DNA from: Octopus vulgaris
Lineage: Eukaryota
DNA: 64,000 nucleotides
Direction: 5' to 3'
NCBI GenBank assembly: GCA_951406725.2
Contig: OX597828.1
Location: 6,200,001 to 6,264,000, forward strand
The notes under the pieces are model-generated. The model was not told the origin of the DNA, ran no database searches, and worked only from the letters and a program-made list of their open reading frames with translations. This document shows, one piece after another, positions 2,925 through 48,375 of the stretch. A program made the position numbers and the translations under genes. Within the stretch, counting starts at the first letter, position 1, and each line of letters begins with the position of its first letter.

Positions 2925-3102
2925 AGTTTCTTTATTGGCCACACAGGGCTGCACACAGATGGGACAAGTTACAAGGTAGAGCTTTTCTTTTGGGGGATGA
3001 AAAAAAAAAAAGGGGGGTGGCGTAGGTTTTCGATCAAGAGGGATCGTAAAAGGGAAGAAAAAAAAATAATAAATAAATAAATAAATAGAATAAAAAATAA
3101 AA
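2925..3102 (-). mobile_element. Short 3'-terminal remnant of a Tx1-like LINE inside (GATA)n
   Basis: Minus strand ends CTTGTCCCATCTGTGTGCAGCCCTGTGTGGCCAATAAAGAAAC and runs into (TATC)n; resembles the Tx1/SINE tail at 40622-40682 and 4080-4139; (GATA)n on both sides. Confidence 0.5.
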
Positions 3103-3176: not shown

Positions 3177-3721
3177 AGATAGGAGGGATGAGAAAATTTT
3201 AAAAAATTACGTATGCCCATATATCAGCGTATATGTATGTCAGTGGCTCTTTGTATGTTTCTGTATGTGTTGTGTCTTTGTGCCTGTATTTGTCCTTCAC
3301 CACTCCTTGACAATCGGTGTTGTTGTGTTTACCTCCATGTAATTTAGTAGATCAGCAAAAGAGACCGATACAATAAATACCAGGTTTAAAAAGAAAATAA
3401 GTACTAGTGTCCATAAGTTTGACTAATGACTGAAACTACTAGAAGCTAAAAGCTAAATGAATAATTATAGAGCAACACCATCGGAACATCAAATGGTTGA
3501 CTAGCGTCAAAGTGTATCGAGAAGTGGAAATTTTCAGAAACGTTCACTCGGACTGGCTCTATACTTCACTTAACTTAACACCGGTAACTATTGGCAGGAA
3601 ACTGAAAGAAGTGAAATGAACTGTTTTATGGGAACAATCTGAAAATCTTCACCGTGAACGATAATAAACAAACTGACCTACTAACATTAGGAAAAAGTTT
3701 CAGTGATATTGTAAAATAGAA

Positions 3722-4338
3722 AGGTGGTGAGCTGGCAGAATCGTTAGCACGCCGGGCGAAATACTTAGCAGTATTTCGTCTGCCGCTACGTTCTGAGTTC
3801 AAATTCCACCGAGGTCAACTTTGCCTTTCATCATCTCTGAGTCGATTAAATAAGTACCAGTTACGCACTGGTGTCGATATAATCGACTTAATCCGTTTGT
3901 CTGGCCTTGTTTGTACCCTCTGTCTTTAACCCCTTGTGGGTAGTAAAGAAATAGGTATTTCGTCTGCCGTTACCTTCCGAGTTCAAATTCCGCGGAGGTC
4001 GGATTTGCCTTTCATCATTTCGGGGTCGATAAATTAAGTACCAGTTACGCACTGGGGTTGGTGCAATCGACTTAATCCCTTTGTCTGTCCTTGTTTGTCC
4101 CCTCTATGTTTAGTCCCTTGTGGGCAATAAAGAAATAAGAGACGTTAGCACGCTGGGCAAAATGCTTAGCGGTATTTCGTCTGTCTTTACGTTCTGAGTT
4201 CAAATTCCGCCGAGGTCGTCTTTCTCTTTCATCCTTTCGAGGTTGATAAATTAAGTACCAGTTGCGTACTAGAGTGGATCGAATGGTCTGGCCCCCTCCC
4301 CTAAAAGTTCGGGCCTTGTGCTTATAGTATAGAAAACA
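3722..4338 (+). mobile_element. tRNA-derived SINE family A trimer: two units with Tx1-like tails followed by a third unit with the ordinary tail
   Basis: Head with A-box-like TGGCAGAATCG and B-box-like GAGTTCAAATTCC. Core TTTCATC..GTCGAT..AAGTACCAG repeated three times. Units 1-2 end in TTGTTTGT(C/A)CCCTCT...AAAGAAATA(G/A). Confidence 0.85.
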
Positions 4339-5099
4339 TTGTAAAATAGAGTCTTTTGTTAGATGTGTTCTAACGCTGTAAAGATAGGTGTAAGAATACC
4401 GTAACACCAGACACACCTTGATAGTACCATCGAAATCAAATACTTAATCAAGAAGGATCAACTAGTTAGTCATTAACTAGTCAAATAGATCAACTAGTTA
4501 GTCATAACAGGTAAGTTTCGAAAATATTGTTACAGGAGAGTAAAAATGATTCAATGACTTGTAGCCGATTTGATACAATTAACATGTTAGATTGGTTGCT
4601 GTAGCTCACAGTTTCAGCATCATAATTTGGACTATTAATGGAATTTAGAAATGAGATACTAAAGCAAGAAAATGATTGGCGATAGCCATGATGCAAAATC
4701 CAAAATTAATAGTAACAGTGTTTATAGTAAAGTAGAAGGCAATTCTAAATAATCTACAAAACCACCATCATAATTCTAGATACTTCATCTATCATTCAAC
4801 ATCACAAACACCGGTCGCGAAATTGTGAAACAATACGTTGCAGGAGAAATCTATATTCCATCATGAAGTACTTGGAGAAATTTTCACCGGAATTGAATAT
4901 TCCTGAATTAAAAAAGAATGAACACGAAACAATGGAATATTTTGCACGCGAAATAAAAGGAAAGGTAAAACAACAGGCTCATTGACTAATGAGGACAATT
5001 GCGTTGTAAAAGTCCTGGTGCGGTAAATAACCGCAAAGCTTTTGATCAATAGTAGAATATCATCAACACAAAAATATAATGATTTCAATTTTTTTCATA

Positions 5100-18240: not shown

Positions 18241-18761
18241 ATTTCATTTATTTCTTTGCCAGAAGAGTGACGGATGTGGGGAACAATACAAAGACAGACA
18301 TAAAGTGTGGGGATTTACATATAATGAAATGATTTTAAAAATGCTAAGTATTTACGGTATCTACTGAAGAAGAAAGGATATACATAGTATACAAAGGTTA
18401 AAAAAAGGTGGGGGGCATGATAGAGGAGGTCCTCTAAGGATAACTGAGGAACTCCACAGTCCGAAATTTCCCCGAACACCAAGAGCAAGTATCCTCTCCA
18501 TTTCCTTCTCTCCGACTTACAGATCTAAACTGAGAGAGGAGCCATCCATTCTTGCCATTTTCGCAACTTCCACCTTTCAATAAACTCACTCGAGGCGTGC
18601 AATTCCGTCTCTACTCTCAATTTCCTTTCAAGTGAAACTTGAAGAAGGCAATGAGAGCTCTACCAAAGAGGAATGTATCTGTCCTATCGCCTTTCAGTCT
18701 TGTCCACCAAACAACCTCTTTCGTCACAGCCATTAGGCAAAGGAAAACTGCCTTGCCTAAC
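18241..18761 (-). mobile_element. Tx1-like LINE 3' fragment
   Basis: Minus strand encodes GKAVFLCLMAVTKEVVWWTRLKG..TFLFGRALIAFFKFHLK, homologous to the ORF2 C-terminus at 40220-40450; tail TGTCTGTCTTTGTATTGTTCCCC...TGGCAAAGAAATAAATGAAAT runs into (ATC)n. Confidence 0.8.
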
Positions 18762-35492: not shown

Positions 35493-35580
<88 letters not shown>

Positions 35581-35582
<2 letters not shown>

Positions 35583-35700
35583 CGGGAAGCTTTATGAAAA
35601 TAGACAAAAGACGAAGGCAGGTGGAAAACAAACGAACAATTGTATTAGTATGGCGCTCAGGAAATATAAATAAAACAAGTCTTTAACGTATCGAGCCTAC
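35581..35700 (-). mobile_element. Truncated copy of the hammerhead-bearing element at 41112-41620
   Basis: Differs at only two positions from 41112-41231; breaks inside the hammerhead stem II. Confidence 0.8.
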
Positions 35701-36085: not shown

Positions 36086-36095
36086 TTGTCTCCCC

Positions 36096-37055
36096 AGGAT
36101 TGTAGAAGCCCCGCCGGACGTAGATCCGGTAGAGGTAGTGGCCGCCCTGTTATATAAAAGGGCGGACAAAATAAAAATACTACAAGTAACATGCTCTGCC
36201 CCTCTATTTTGGCTCGGGCGTAACATTAATATATTAATTCAAGGAACAGCGGAGGACCTGCAGCTCCTTCCTGAGAGGGTGCTCGTGGGCGAGAACGTAG
36301 CCCTCAGGGTACAGGTCGAAGGCCGAAAACCCACCTGTTACGCCTGCGGCAAAAAGGGCCACATTCGTGTAGACTGTCCAGACAAGCAAAAGAAACCGCA
36401 GACACCAGGCCCCTCAGATAATAAAAAAGTCCCTACCCTTGCAAACACACCTACCCCTACAAAAACAAAAAATCCCACTCCTGCTGTTACGGTGCCAACC
36501 CCAAAACAGACTGAAGAAAAAACCCAGCCCTCGCACTCACAAACCCCTACACTATTAAAACCTCCCACCCCCCTAAAAACTGCGGCGCCTACCGAACAAA
36601 CTATTGCTACCCCAGACGATACCATGGAGGTATCAGAGGGGGGATTTACACCAGTTCGTAAAAGAATTCGTGCAGCATCCCCGTCCACATCCCCTACAAA
36701 AAATAATAAAAACAAAGACACACCACAGACACGGAAAAAAAAATCCCGCTCAACTGGCCCAGAAAAAGAAGACAAAAAAGAAAATGAACTCATATTAATT
36801 GAATTCGACACACAAGACAAATGCATAAACGATATTGTGGTTCAGCATCAGTCAGCAAGACTGTACAAGAAATACAAAGATCGAAATAGACACGCGTGGA
36901 TTGCGGAAACAACGTTCAAACAATTAAAAGACAGACACCCAAACGCCATCCGGCATATCGCGAACTTGCCGAACTATCTGAAGAAAGAGGAGAAAGAAGG
37001 GGCCCACAAACGTGTAGTGAGGTCGGCCCCCAACTCTCCAACGAAATGTAAGTAG
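36096..37055 (+). CDS. Tx1 ORF1 (gag-like, CCHC zinc knuckle), N-terminus missing
   Basis: [25 protein letters not shown] followed by a Pro/Thr/Lys-rich region; the track's MCVCVC start is microsatellite. Confidence 0.8.
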
Positions 37056-40000
37056 AACTTTTACTTTTTGTAATGGCTTCGCTTAACCTTGGTTGTTTAA
37101 ATGTGCGTGGTCTGAGTTCGAAGTGGAAGCAGGCTTGTTTCCTCGACGACCTCAGATCACATGATATACATGTGATGGTTGCTACAGAGACCAAGCTGGA
37201 CAGCCTAAAAACCTTCTCGCCTCTCCTGAATGGCTACGAGAAAATCATGTCTCCTGGCCAGACCGGAGGGCGAGGGGGCGTAGTGGTACTGATCCGTAAA
37301 GACTTGGCTCTACAGACAAGTACAGTCTATGTAGACCCAGAAGGTGGGCTGGTCGTCCTTGATGTGACATACAGCAGTAAGGCCTTCAGGTTGATCGGAC
37401 TCTATGCACCTTGTGCTAGAGGTTTCCAAACTCATTTTTATCGGCGCCTAGAGGGCTTTCTCGTGACGTCGAAGACTTTAGTGATATTAGGGGACTTTAA
37501 TGCTATCGTTGACGTACACATCGATAGCGTTGGCTCGATCTATAGGAAAGTGAACTCACGTCTCGTGGATCTGCTTAAGCGGTTTCAGCTGGCAAATCGT
37601 TACAGACTTGACCATCCGAACGTCCCAGAGTGGACCTGGATGAGTGGCGACGGAAGGTTCAAGTCTTATCTAGACAGGATGGTGATAAGAACTAGAGATA
37701 AGTCTAGTTTTAGTTGTCCACAGCTCGTCCAGGTGCCCTATACTGACCATAGAATGGTCACGTGTAGACTGGACATAGATAGCACACTTAAGATAGGAAC
37801 CGGCTACTGGAAGCTGAACAAGTCTATTTTGACACGCGAGGCATACCGTAGCCGGATTAAGGTGTTAGTGCAGAGGGCGTTAACCGGAGCCGTGGTTAAT
37901 AACCGGTGGTGGTTCACCCTCAAAAGAGCCATTCGATTCGAGTCCATTAGATTTAGTAAACAACTAAGACTAGATAGGGCTAGAATAGAAGGGCAACTAG
38001 TTAAGAACTTAGAGGAGGCGTTGAGGTTGGGCTCTGCATCTCACATTTTAGCGGCGAGAACGGCATTAGACCGTCACCTCAAAACCAAACATGAGGGATG
38101 TAGAGTCCGGGCTAAAGTACGAGCATTGGGCCGTGAGGGAATTAATGTTGCCGGATGGGCCCGTACGATAGAAACACAGCGTGGAAACGATGCCACAATT
38201 GGGTCTCTTGTTGATGAAAACGGATGCACGATCAAGAAGCTGGACGAGATGTGTGAGGCACTTCACAAGCACTTCGCCGAGTTGTTCGGGAGGTGCGGGA
38301 CGCTGGATCATGGTGAGGCCCTTAGGGACTTCGTGTCTGGTGGCCCGCGCCTCTCGACACGAGAAGCTGAGTGCTGTGAAGGGCCAATCACAGCCGAGGA
38401 AGTAATCGAGGTGTTGGGCAAGTGCCCCGGGGAGAAGTCGCCGGGTCTCGATGGTCTGCCCTATGAATTTTATGAAAGTATGCCAGACTTGTTCGGGCAC
38501 CTGCTGGCTAGCGTCTACGCCAACTGGCAGCAGAATGGGATTAATTCCCAAGTCTGCGAGCCGGGGGCGGTGACGTTGATCAGGAAGGACCCGAACAAGG
38601 GGGACGAGATAGGGAACTTCAGGCCCATAACTCTGTTAAACACAGAGTTAAAGATTCTGGCCAAGGTGCTAGCAAAAAGGTTGGCGCGGGTCGTGGACAA
38701 ACTTGTCGGGGAAGCGCAAACGTGCGCTATCCCCGGCAGAACGATCCACGATAATCTCCACCTTATACGCTACTCCTTAGAGAGGGTGGGGAAGCTTTCT
38801 GGCGCAGGGGGAGCACTGGTACATTTAGACCAGTCCAAAGCATTTGATAGGGTCGACCATCGGTACCTGGCGGCGGTCCTCGGAGAGGCTGGCCTAGGCC
38901 CGACCTTTCGAGGTTGGATCGCTGCTTTGTATAGCGACATCGAGTCTGTAGTCAAGGTGAACGGTTCCTTTTCGAAGCCGTTCAGGATCGAGCGTTCAGT
39001 TCGTCAAGGGTGTCCCCTGTCCTCTCTCCTATACGTATTGGCTCTTGAGCCTTTGCTGCGGAAGTTGGAGGCACTAGGGGGCGCGCCGCATGATCTATGG
39101 TGTGGAAGAGGAGCTACGGCGTATGCGGATGACACCTCCATCATCGTGGCAGACGAAGGCCAGCTTCCAGTGGTGGAAGAGGCCATCAAAAGCTACGAGG
39201 CGGTGGCAGGAGCAAAGGTTAACAAGGACAAGTCGGTCGGATTGCAACTCGGCACCTGGAGGGGCAAGCCGATGCCGTCCAATAACGTCGTAGGGCGTTG
39301 GACGGAAGGTCCTGTTAAGCTGCTCAGAGTCTGGTTCGGGCCAGACCTCCAGATTGAGAAAAATTGGAGTGAGGTGGCCAACAAGGTGACCGCTCTAACC
39401 CAGACCTGGTCTGGGCGGGCGTTATCCCTGCTAGGGAAGGCGGAGGTGGTGCAGATGTTTATAGCATCAGTAATCACCTACCGTCTGACCGTGGTGCCTT
39501 GCCCCGATTTGTGGCTGAACAAGTTGGAGAGAATCATTTTCCGATTTTTGTGGAAAGGAGGAAAGCCACTTGTAAAGCGCTCTGTCTGCTGCCAGAAACC
39601 GCTAAAGTGTGGGCTAGGGATGCCTTGGCTGAGGATGCGAAAACTCGCGTTAAGGTTGAGGCACCTCTGGCTTTACCTGGATGGAGAGCAGGTGTGGTCA
39701 CCGCACGTCCGGGTCTACCTTCCCCAGTTAACATCCCTAACGGACATCGGTGCATGGATCAAGCGGAGACCTAAACTGAGTGAAAGGCATTTGGAGTGCC
39801 GTCAGGCGCTCCAGCTACTATCTCGGGTGGGCAACGCCGGCAACAGGAGTTCCACCACGGATTTCTATAGCGGGTTAGTGGAGATTAAGTCCGAAGACGC
39901 CTTAGGGGAGACCCTGGGCTACGATGAAAATCAGTTGGTCAACCCGGGGTATCTGGATAATTACCAGAAATCCCTGGCCTGGCAGTGTTTCCGTGCGGCT

Positions 40001-40682
40001 TTACCTGTTCGCGACAAGCTGTCAAGGCACGGTAGTGCCGTCTCGCCGACATGCCCGCGATGTGAGCAGGATAGGGAGACCGTCTTGCACGCATTCGTGG
40101 AGTGTCCGGAGTTATCGGAACTGATAGCTTTTGTTGAACAACTGTTGTCAGTGATGGGAAGAGTACAGCTATCAGCTGAGTCTATCATCGAGATTGTGCC
40201 GCCCCCTTTCCTTAACAGGGAAAGAAAGGCTTGTTTTTTCTGTGTAGTAGCCATACTGAAAGAAACAGTATGGAAGACGCGTACGAAAGGTATAGTGACA
40301 GGCACCTTTGTCTCCGGCCAGGGGTTGATTAACTTTTTTAGTTACCACCTCAGTAGCAAAATCAGGCTGGAGAAGAGGTGTCTGTCACGAGATATGTTTG
40401 TGAAAAGATGGAAGCCTGTGGCATACAAGATGGGTATGTTTGGCACCAGGTAAGTGTGACCGGATCAGAAAGTAAAGGTTCTACCCGGATGGCTGGGTGT
40501 CCGTCCTTCGACATGATCATTAATATTTTTAAACATTGCCTTCGTAAAATTCATTGTTTATAATCTTATCCGTAATTTCATTCGAAAATTGTAACTGTGT
40601 TAAGCTACTTCACCCTTTATATTTGTCTGTACTTGTTTGTCCCCTCTTTGTAAATGCCTAAATGGCAAATTATATGAAATAA
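36097..40682 (+). mobile_element. Tx1-type (L1 clade) non-LTR retrotransposon, 5'-truncated within ORF1, intact 3' end
   Basis: ORF1 with CCHC knuckle, 17-nt spacer, ORF2 APE-RT-zf, ~230-bp 3' UTR; clearly more GC-rich than the flanks. Confidence 0.93.
37073..40453 (+). CDS. Tx1 ORF2: AP-endonuclease, reverse transcriptase, C-terminal zinc finger (1126 aa)
   Basis: NVRGL, ATETKL, GDFNA, YLDR, TDHRMV (APE); KSPGLDG, FRPITLLN, LDQSKAFDRVDH, VRQGCPLS, YADD (RT); CPRC..ETVLHAFVEC (zf). Confidence 0.93.
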   Translation: MASLNLGCLNVRGLSSKWKQACFLDDLRSHDIHVMVATETKLDSLKTFSPLLNGYEKIMSPGQTGGRGGVVVLIRKDLALQTSTVYVDPEGGLVVLDVTYSSKAFRLIGLYAPCARGFQTHFYRRLEGFLVTSKTLVILGDFNAIVDVHIDSVGSIYRKVNSRLVDLLKRFQLANRYRLDHPNVPEWTWMSGDGRFKSYLDRMVIRTRDKSSFSCPQLVQVPYTDHRMVTCRLDIDSTLKIGTGYWKLNKSILTREAYRSRIKVLVQRALTGAVVNNRWWFTLKRAIRFESIRFSKQLRLDRARIEGQLVKNLEEALRLGSASHILAARTALDRHLKTKHEGCRVRAKVRALGREGINVAGWARTIETQRGNDATIGSLVDENGCTIKKLDEMCEALHKHFAELFGRCGTLDHGEALRDFVSGGPRLSTREAECCEGPITAEEVIEVLGKCPGEKSPGLDGLPYEFYESMPDLFGHLLASVYANWQQNGINSQVCEPGAVTLIRKDPNKGDEIGNFRPITLLNTELKILAKVLAKRLARVVDKLVGEAQTCAIPGRTIHDNLHLIRYSLERVGKLSGAGGALVHLDQSKAFDRVDHRYLAAVLGEAGLGPTFRGWIAALYSDIESVVKVNGSFSKPFRIERSVRQGCPLSSLLYVLALEPLLRKLEALGGAPHDLWCGRGATAYADDTSIIVADEGQLPVVEEAIKSYEAVAGAKVNKDKSVGLQLGTWRGKPMPSNNVVGRWTEGPVKLLRVWFGPDLQIEKNWSEVANKVTALTQTWSGRALSLLGKAEVVQMFIASVITYRLTVVPCPDLWLNKLERIIFRFLWKGGKPLVKRSVCCQKPLKCGLGMPWLRMRKLALRLRHLWLYLDGEQVWSPHVRVYLPQLTSLTDIGAWIKRRPKLSERHLECRQALQLLSRVGNAGNRSSTTDFYSGLVEIKSEDALGETLGYDENQLVNPGYLDNYQKSLAWQCFRAALPVRDKLSRHGSAVSPTCPRCEQDRETVLHAFVECPELSELIAFVEQLLSVMGRVQLSAESIIEIVPPPFLNRERKACFFCVVAILKETVWKTRTKGIVTGTFVSGQGLINFFSYHLSSKIRLEKRCLSRDMFVKRWKPVAYKMGMFGTR

Positions 40683-41059
40683 AGTAGCTTGCTAACCAAC
40701 CACATGGTTCCGGGTTCAGTCCCAGTGCGTGGCAACTTGGGCAAGTGTCTTCTGCTATAGCCCCGGGCCGACCAATGCCTTGTGAGTGGATTTGGTAGAC
40801 GGAAACTGAAAGAAGCCTGTCGTATATATGTATATATATATAAGTGTGTCTGTGTTTGTCCCCCTAGCATTGCTTGACAACAGATGCTGGTGTGTTTACG
40901 TCCCCGTCACTTAGCGGTTCGGCAAAAGAGAATGATAGAATAAGTACTGAGCTTACAAAGAATAAGTCCCGGGGTCGATTTGCTCGACTAAAGGCGGTGC
41001 TCCAGCATGGCCGCAGTCAAATGACTGAAACAAGTAAAAGAGTAAAGAGAATAAAAAGA

Positions 41060-41060
<1 letters not shown>
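40682..41060 (+). mobile_element. SINE family B lacking its first ~17 nt (joined to the Tx1 3' end)
   Basis: Starts AAGTAGCTTGCTAACCAACCACATGGTTCCGGGTTCAGTCCC; collinear with the reverse complement of 35087-35476. Confidence 0.9.
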
Positions 41061-41111
<51 letters not shown>

Positions 41112-41112
<1 letters not shown>

Positions 41113-41498
41113 ACGGGAAGCTTTATGAAAATAGACAAAAGACGAAGGCAGGTGGAAAACAAACGAACAATTGTATTAGTATGGCGCTCAGGAAATATAA
41201 ATAAAACACGTCTTTAACGTTTCGAGCCTACGCTCTTCAACAGAAAGATACACAGAGAGAAAAAAACACAGAAAGAAGGAGAGAAAAAGAAATGCGTGCA
41301 GTAGCTAACGAATCAACATGGCGATCTGATTTCGGCCAGAGGTCAAAGATCAAACATGAGACGCGAGAGCGAAATAAGGGGAGATAATAGGGTTGATAAT
41401 AGGGTTGATAATAGGGTTGAAGGACCAGCTAATAGTGCGTAGGATGGGTCTGGACGTGTGTATGTATAGGGTTGGTGTATGTATTAGTATGTATAAGT

Positions 41499-47982: not shown

Positions 47983-48375
47983 TTATTTCTTTGTTGCCCA
48001 CAAGGGGCTAAACATAGAGGGGACAAACAAGGACAGACAAAGGCATTAAGTCAATTACATCGACCCTAGTACGCAACTGGTACTTAATTTATCGACCCCA
48101 AAAGGTGGCATTTGAGATCAGAACGTAACGGCAGGCGAAATACCTATTTCTTTACTACCCACATGGGGCTAAAGATAGAGAGGACAAACAAGGACAGACA
48201 AACGGATTAAGTCGATTACATCGAACCCAGTGCGTAACTGGTACTTAATTTATCGACCCTAAAAGGATGAAACACACAGTCGATCTCGGCGGAATTTGAA
48301 CTCAGAACGTAGCGTCATACGAAATACCGCTAAGCATTTTGCCCGGTGTGCTAACGTTTCTGCCATCTCGCCGCA
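47983..48375 (-). mobile_element. SINE family A dimer with Tx1-like tails
   Basis: Reverse complement of units 1-2 of 3722-4139, with the same junction TAGTAAAGAAATAG|GTATTTCG. Confidence 0.85.

Follow-up and report, generated by a model that had tools for sequence, protein, structure and literature searches.

A Tx1-type LINE tail on an abundant octopus SINE, and a one-letter tail variant that goes with the landing sequence

Relaxed template choice that depends on poly(A) has its textbook example in elements of the L1 clade. The eel elements UnaSINE and UnaL2, of the L2 clade, form a stringent pair in which the stem-loop of the tail is read by the partner LINE. For that pair this was shown by experiment; for the octopus elements described here recognition is proposed from sequence comparison. 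Among 58 SINE/LINE pairs, the accessible part of Ohshima 2012 (PMC3472496; 2013 review, PMC3747384) gives three L1-tailed SINEs, from plants and an alga: maize ZmSINE2 and ZmSINE3 with LINE1-1_ZM, and Chlamydomonas SINEX-3_CR with L1-1_CR. As far as that source is available, the octopus case resembles these pairs in that about 50 nt of 3′ end are common to the SINE and an L1-clade LINE, the putative hairpin has a variable stem and stringent recognition is inferred (PMC3472496). It differs in coming from an animal, in involving Tx1-type LINEs that lack poly(A), in having several partner families with different targets and in a target tied to the tail variant. In crocodilians, mobilisation of SINEU by Tx1 families (Tx1-Mar) was inferred from a shared preference for another transposon, and different Tx1 families were suspected for different subfamilies (Kojima 2015, PMC4494074, available portions). 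SINEU carries snRNA heads, and according to the same portions of that paper no LINE was detected that has the 3′ terminus of SINEU-1; in octopus, SINE and LINE have the tail in common, and the insertion target is a SINE, often the element itself. For the rDNA-specific elements R1 and R2, the available text of PMC4494074 also states that co-transcribed flanking target in the RNA strengthens site-specific integration, while the present case concerns a non-autonomous SINE, dispersed sites and an effect of 3-6 nt that differs between subfamilies. The accessible part of Kojima 2018 (PMC5786205) describes non-autonomous LINEs that have ORF1 only, HAL1 among them. The available text of a 2026 O. vulgaris annotation (PMC13282606) reports L1-Tx1 families and mostly unclassified SINEs, and does not contain the word 'target'. 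In the openly readable parts of the literature, including PMC4758252, PMC5804259 and PMC7245038, we found neither a Tx1-tailed SINE in octopus nor trailer-linked SINE targeting. The link between tail variant and target is the new element here.

The DNA analysed is a 64,000-nt stretch of the Octopus vulgaris genome (the window), in which a sequence-only reading had taken a SINE at 3722-4338 to carry the tail of a Tx1 LINE with ORF2 at 37073-40453. We use working labels: the SINE is family A, its Tx1-type tail is T1, its other tails are T2a and T2b, and a second SINE family is SINE-B. The coordinates of all features are collected in Table 1.

Table 1. Features of the window that bear on the SINE and the LINE
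Feature	Position	Strand	Basis
Another Tx1-type family, 3′ end within (TATC)n, related tail	2928-3030	-	same tail after ORF2 in L186
5′ copy of the 13-nt target-site duplication enclosing the whole composite	3708-3720	+	sequence; partner copy 4338-4350
Family A unit 1: head, body and T1 tail 3896-3953 (T-stem variant)	3721-3953	+	sequence
A-box-like and B-box-like motifs within the head of unit 1	3733-3740 and 3797-3807	+	read by eye
Headless unit 2, starting at a GGTA site and ending in a C-stem tail	3954-4137	+	7% from unit consensus
Tx1-type tail of unit 2	4080-4137	+	pyrimidine tract 4080-4109, hairpin 4113-4125, A-rich end
Remainder of a family A copy from the head site, ending in older tail T2a (about 4288-4337)	4138-4337	+	
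3′ copy of the outer 13-nt duplication	4338-4350	+	sequence
ORF1, 5′-truncated, CCHC zinc knuckle	36095-37055	+	Pfam zf-CCHC; begins at position 850 of the 5454-nt unit
ORF2, 1126 aa: APE endonuclease, RT, zf-RVT	37073-40453	+	domain matches
9-nt 3′ UTR stretch complementary to the start of the downstream target	40602-40610	+	predicted helix with read-through target
Tail of the LINE, without poly(A): tract that matches the SINE, then hairpin 40655-40667	40622-40682	+	
Remainder of SINE-B from the LINE's fixed target base	40683-41060	+	
Second two-unit Tx1-tailed SINE, dispersed site	about 47984-48375	-	

The SINE locus proved to be a composite. It ends in T2a, so its terminal tail is not the Tx1-like one and the T1 part was nested or carried along; the terminal tail and the outer duplication belong to the T2a part. 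The T1 tail is present twice in this locus and twice more in the minus-strand copy, and its stem ends in GGGT in unit 1 and GGGC in unit 2. Other family A copies had been read as having different tails, and this was seen at 4138, 18970-18762 and 25190. The T1-tailed SINE is short, non-coding, dispersed and of high copy number. Neither ARAGORN nor Rfam matched a tRNA in the family A head. Head-deleted family A copies were considered as truncated self-insertions and this was ruled out, as they are internal deletions; many of the copies L263-L292 have such short deletions just behind the head. Directly behind the family A copy at 18970-18762 starts a decayed 3′ fragment of Tx1 type (18250-18754, minus strand).

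The LINE has an L1/Tx1-type layout, with an ORF2 of APE, RT and a C-terminal zinc-binding domain and with a CCHC knuckle in ORF1. The closest solved relative of ORF2 is human L1 ORF2p (E 9e-62). The label 'Tx1' rests on ORF layout and target specificity; our trees contain this genome's families and unnamed proteins, and no named Tx1 protein was found among the homologues. A search with the 3′ end of this family returned 741 candidates in the 2.8-Gb genome, the best 40 at 99-100%. Among the best 30 of these 741, all 30 carry the tail segment, which is thus not a stray SINE piece; the earlier view of 40622-40682 as the LINE's own 3′ end was upheld. In the same 30 copies the tail is always followed by AGTAG, after which 28 continue in SINE-B and two into a further element. 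Reading 17 single copies through to the 5′ end placed the head of SINE-B upstream in 16, and insertion of this family is sequence-specific, into a repeat. At the 5′ junctions of L093-L110 there is an apparent 15-nt duplication. Seven copies have a host that differs at positions 10-15, and at 12-15 all seven show the element's version. Consequently, the duplication proper spans about 9-10 nt, and the 5′ end of the element carries target-like bases. Besides its 5′ truncation by 850 nt, the window's copy has a 21-nt deletion relative to copy L095. The LINE is flanked at 35576-35700 and 41107-41231 by the first 125 nt of one other repeat (98% alike), each time after (TA)n; together with a 5′ joint in the middle of SINE-B without duplication, this suggests local rearrangement. 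Head-to-tail stacks occur at the SINE-B site in L091-L092 (G000:C9, about 2.66-2.68 Mb), L096 and L102; they comprise at least three LINE units, and also other elements with related ends stacked at the same base.

The reported match between the SINE tail at 4080-4109 and the LINE 3′ UTR at 40622-40651 was reproduced at 28/30, while the best of 2000 shuffles of the LINE 3′ UTR reached 21/30. Most copies of the window's family match the T1 consensus at 29/30 over these first 30 nt. The shared ending stood in part: GGCAA...GAAATA(A) closes both tails, yet over the final 28 nt only 15/28 positions are identical. The tail consists of a pyrimidine tract, a 4-bp hairpin and an A-rich end without poly(A), and none of the Tx1-type tails compared ends in poly(A). 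Tails of the T1 type are common to at least six Tx1-type families and one ORF1-only passenger, and eight of ten Tx1-type tails score above all 500 shuffles against the SINE tail. The earlier view that the tail is of Tx1 type is thus supported. The families that carry it are only 55-64% alike in ORF2, and the SINE subfamily is only 4% diverged, which argues that the tail passed from LINE to SINE, as had been proposed. That the LINE took the segment from the SINE, or that the match is chance in a GT-rich tract, is hardly credible, although SINE copies are about a hundred times as numerous as those of the LINE family and a 21/30 look-alike of the tract lies in SINE-B. The motif occurs across deep LINE branches, where the stem changes are paired, and the SINE subfamily is young by comparison, while shuffles go no higher than the look-alike; transfer from SINE to LINE, or chance, is largely refuted.

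When the 58-nt T1 consensus was compared with all these tails, the highest match was to the ORF1-only passenger (49/58), followed by the L161 type (47/58, with an 11-nt gap), L246 (45/58) and the window's family (44/58; 29/30 in the first half and 15/28 in the second), the remaining Tx1-type tails giving 36-42. The shared 3′ end that marks a stringent SINE/LINE pair was thus found at 44-49/58 with four Tx1-type elements. Within the Tx1-type tails surveyed, the expectation that Tx1 3′ ends match the SINE tail held, but some other Tx1-type elements equal or exceed the window's family in this match. Tail-bearing relatives include a family in (ATT)n tracts, young and older families in (TATC)n tracts, the single copies L197 and L246, and the dispersed, older L161 type, in which ORF2 lies upstream in 24 of the best 30 candidates. 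In a quick tree the window's family, L246 and the L161 type form one branch (support 98), and a second tree grouped the window's family with L246 at 0.98; this branch has the best-matching tails among ORF2 families. Two of the Tx1-type families, L061-L090 in (ATT)n and L203-L232 in (TATC)n tracts, are young with a long open ORF2, and the first forms arrays with a period of about 5.9 kb.

The passenger (L383-L412) is dispersed, with 1308 candidates. Among the best 30 of these, ORF1 matches were found in the three longest copies, ending about 390 nt before the tail end, and no ORF2 match was found in any of the 30. It therefore consists of ORF1 and then the tail, without ORF2, as in an ORF1-only non-autonomous LINE of the HAL1 kind; going by the accessible part of PMC5786205, it differs in being Tx1-type and in having a tail that is the closest match to a SINE tail. 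Its duplications are 13-24 nt in 16/30, and its targets mostly start GAG. An ORF2-coding family with the SINE's exact tail was not found, the closest tail being that of a non-autonomous element: a pattern excluding the SINE body gave 138 matches, and the 30 fetched of these contain no ORF2.

A stem of 3-5 bp closed by a loop of 4-6 nt is possible in all compared tails. Stem positions were paired in 82.5% of cases on ten real copies, compared with 17-50% for slid controls. Covariation was weak, with two-sided change in 2/4 pairs and values as high in 25 of 500 shuffles, in an alignment that is not structure-aware. The T2 tails keep a hairpin, GGC-CTTGT-GCC. In two of 20 comparisons a T2 tail exceeded all 500 shuffles: T2b when compared with the L197 tail, and T2a when compared with that of the ORF1-only element; among 17 non-SINE matches we found no LINE with a T2 tail. 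These tails give hints that family A may already have ridden Tx1-type LINEs before T1. For the proposal that a tail swap let this subfamily hijack Tx1, the outcome is mixed. T1 units are younger than the other-tailed SINEs, as replacement requires, but 'hijack' is doubtful when older tails have a like hairpin and one resembles the end of another Tx1 family; the swap was probably between Tx1-type tails.

Ages were taken as non-CpG divergence. T1 SINE units are 4.1% diverged (4.3% in the 43 units of an unbiased sample), and T2a and T2b SINEs about 11% (17 and 13 copies), so T1 is the youngest form of family A, which fits tail replacement. LINE ages come from the best 30 of 741-1308 candidates and thus lean young, and older copies of the window's family may exist. 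On this basis the window's family is 0% diverged (maximum 0.6; best 30 of 741), the L161 type 3.5% (best 30 of its candidates) and the ORF1-only passenger 2.2% (best 30 of 1308). The concurrent activity expected of a SINE/LINE pair was not found between the SINE, at 4.1%, and the window's family, at 0-0.6% among its best 30 of 741.

The driver of the SINE is very probably a Tx1-type element. That 37073-40453 represents it, as originally suggested, was not supported. It is improbable that this family or its direct ancestor drives the SINE, even though it gives the best match over the first 30 nt, has the same terminal GAAATA and shares its exact target base with SINE copies at about 680-fold over a random estimate for AGAAG and about 11-fold for AGTAG (adjusted to 94:6). 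Its tail agrees poorly with that of the SINE in the hairpin half, as given above, and the passenger and the L161 type score higher over the whole. It lies at AGTAG in 30/30 copies (best 30 of 741), a start found at 3/92 dispersed SINE sites, and its true duplications are shorter than those of the SINE, which is mostly dispersed with a median duplication of 16 nt. In addition, the 31 SINE copies at SINE-B sites are at least 1.4% diverged (median 3.4%), compared with 0-0.6% for the best 30 of this LINE family. The L161 type, with duplications of 14-19 nt in 8/30, fits the SINE in age, duplication length and hairpin, but not in the first target bases, as its targets start with neither AGA nor GGT. 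As a first guess, we suppose that the driver is a family outside our sample that serves the SINE as well as the ORF1-only passenger.

To describe where the SINE lands, 600 kb were taken at fixed steps, and unbiased counts rest on this sample. It contains 44 T1 units, of which 16 are internal, one is at the head site and none is at the SINE-B site. This density corresponds to about 10^5 elements genome-wide, mostly dispersed. Duplications were found in 49/92 dispersed copies. Genome-wide, 296 exact junctions place the T1 tail at the LINE's base in SINE-B, a sign of kinship with the LINE in targeting, and 2685 exact junctions, of the class seen at 4137/4138, join it to family A's own head site. 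Sample densities predict about two of each, a rough figure from small counts. The SINE-B junctions are a small share of all SINE copies and use the same base as the window's family in another variant: AGAAG was found in 94 of the first 100 listed, while in the sample AGTAG sites, which the LINE uses, are commoner than AGAAG sites (20 to 5). The SINE-B host head lies upstream in 26/30 of the T1 junction cases, read by eye, and the 5′ joints vary, so these are separate events. Hosts at the head site (n=40) carry T2a in 19 cases, T1 in 14 and T2b in three, with four unclear; hosts were not clearly older than the inserted unit (12/19, 7/14 and 3/3).

We then compared the two tail variants at 92 dispersed sites; the seven-unit array at L392 was left out, as was any copy that runs on into family A or SINE-B sequence. 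With C-stem tails the target starts AGA 19 times and GGT four times; with T-stem tails it starts AGA once and GGT 19 times (p=2e-7). TATA starts number 11 and 12 of 46. The unbiased sample alone gives 6/0 versus 0/2 (p=0.04), and makes up 8 of the 43 AGA/GGT sites. Within tandem arrangements, the head site follows a C-stem tail 13 times and the internal unit does so 10 times; for T-stem tails the counts are 2 and 100. The dispersed target starts are the bases that follow the same variant in tandem arrays. The leading bases are present in both duplication copies in 34/49 and are thus part of the target and not of the element. Target match beyond four bases is above background (6/18, p=0.01; 5/16, p=0.02) and extends to six bases. 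In four clear cases extra TA bases are missing from the 5′ duplication copy, which points to RNA beyond the tail. From these comparisons, a one-letter tail difference goes with the landing sequence, likely via a few bases transcribed past the tail that pair with the site. The 9-nt UTR stretch of the window's LINE, predicted to pair with read-through target, may be a related trait.

A rival reading keeps Tx1-type drivers but ascribes targeting to protein alone. Separate Tx1-type families would recognize C-stem and T-stem hairpins and nick at AGAA or GGTA, and the tandem arrays would be a result rather than a cause. Targets do vary strongly among the Tx1-type families here, from the SINE-B head through (ATT)n and (TATC)n to dispersed sites, genomic leading bases fit either model, and two endonucleases with different preferences would yield the same link of variant to target. 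We regard this as rather unlikely, since the match reaches six bases and the extra TA bases indicate RNA beyond the tail. Moreover, three patterns for a LINE at the SINE's head or internal site (AGAAAC / GGTATT), which would miss LINEs with other end letters, gave 2, 206 and 102 matches, and the 2, 30 and 30 fetched are SINE derivatives.

We favor, with moderate confidence, copying of the SINE by an older, loosely targeted member of the window LINE's lineage, and not by the young family, with the site partly chosen by trailer pairing. A family A SINE with an older tail would have acquired T1 from a Tx1-type RNA by template switch or recombination, and ORF2 would bind the tract plus the hairpin, giving stringent recognition. 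From tandem master copies, T-stem transcripts would run on into GGUAUU, C-stem transcripts into AGAAAC and a third class into UA repeats. The trailer could then anneal to the nicked target strand and prime reverse transcription. Such annealing would favor sites starting with the trailer's bases, so that the SINE's own head would become the best site, and joining of the 5′ end by homology would produce self-insertions with a single head, as at 3721-4337. Tentatively, this may be extended to a poly(A)-less Tx1 lineage that recognizes its passengers by a hairpin tail, each passenger steering its own landing via the bases past the tail, with the one-letter variant marking the trailer and tandem self-insertion feeding back on target preference. 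If true, an APE-type retrotransposon would have RNA-programmed target choice, which could be followed over some 10^5 dispersed insertions, and strict specificity like that of the window's LINE would evolve along such a route. Should part of the target be set by the trailer, L1-like enzymes would have in the RNA 3′ end a separable, testable site determinant beside the endonuclease. Natural variants for testing when stringent recognition was lost are offered by this Tx1-type radiation, whose families have the folded tail in common with a very abundant SINE and with an ORF1-only passenger. The array at L392 consists of at least seven T1 units joined via the same foreign spacer.
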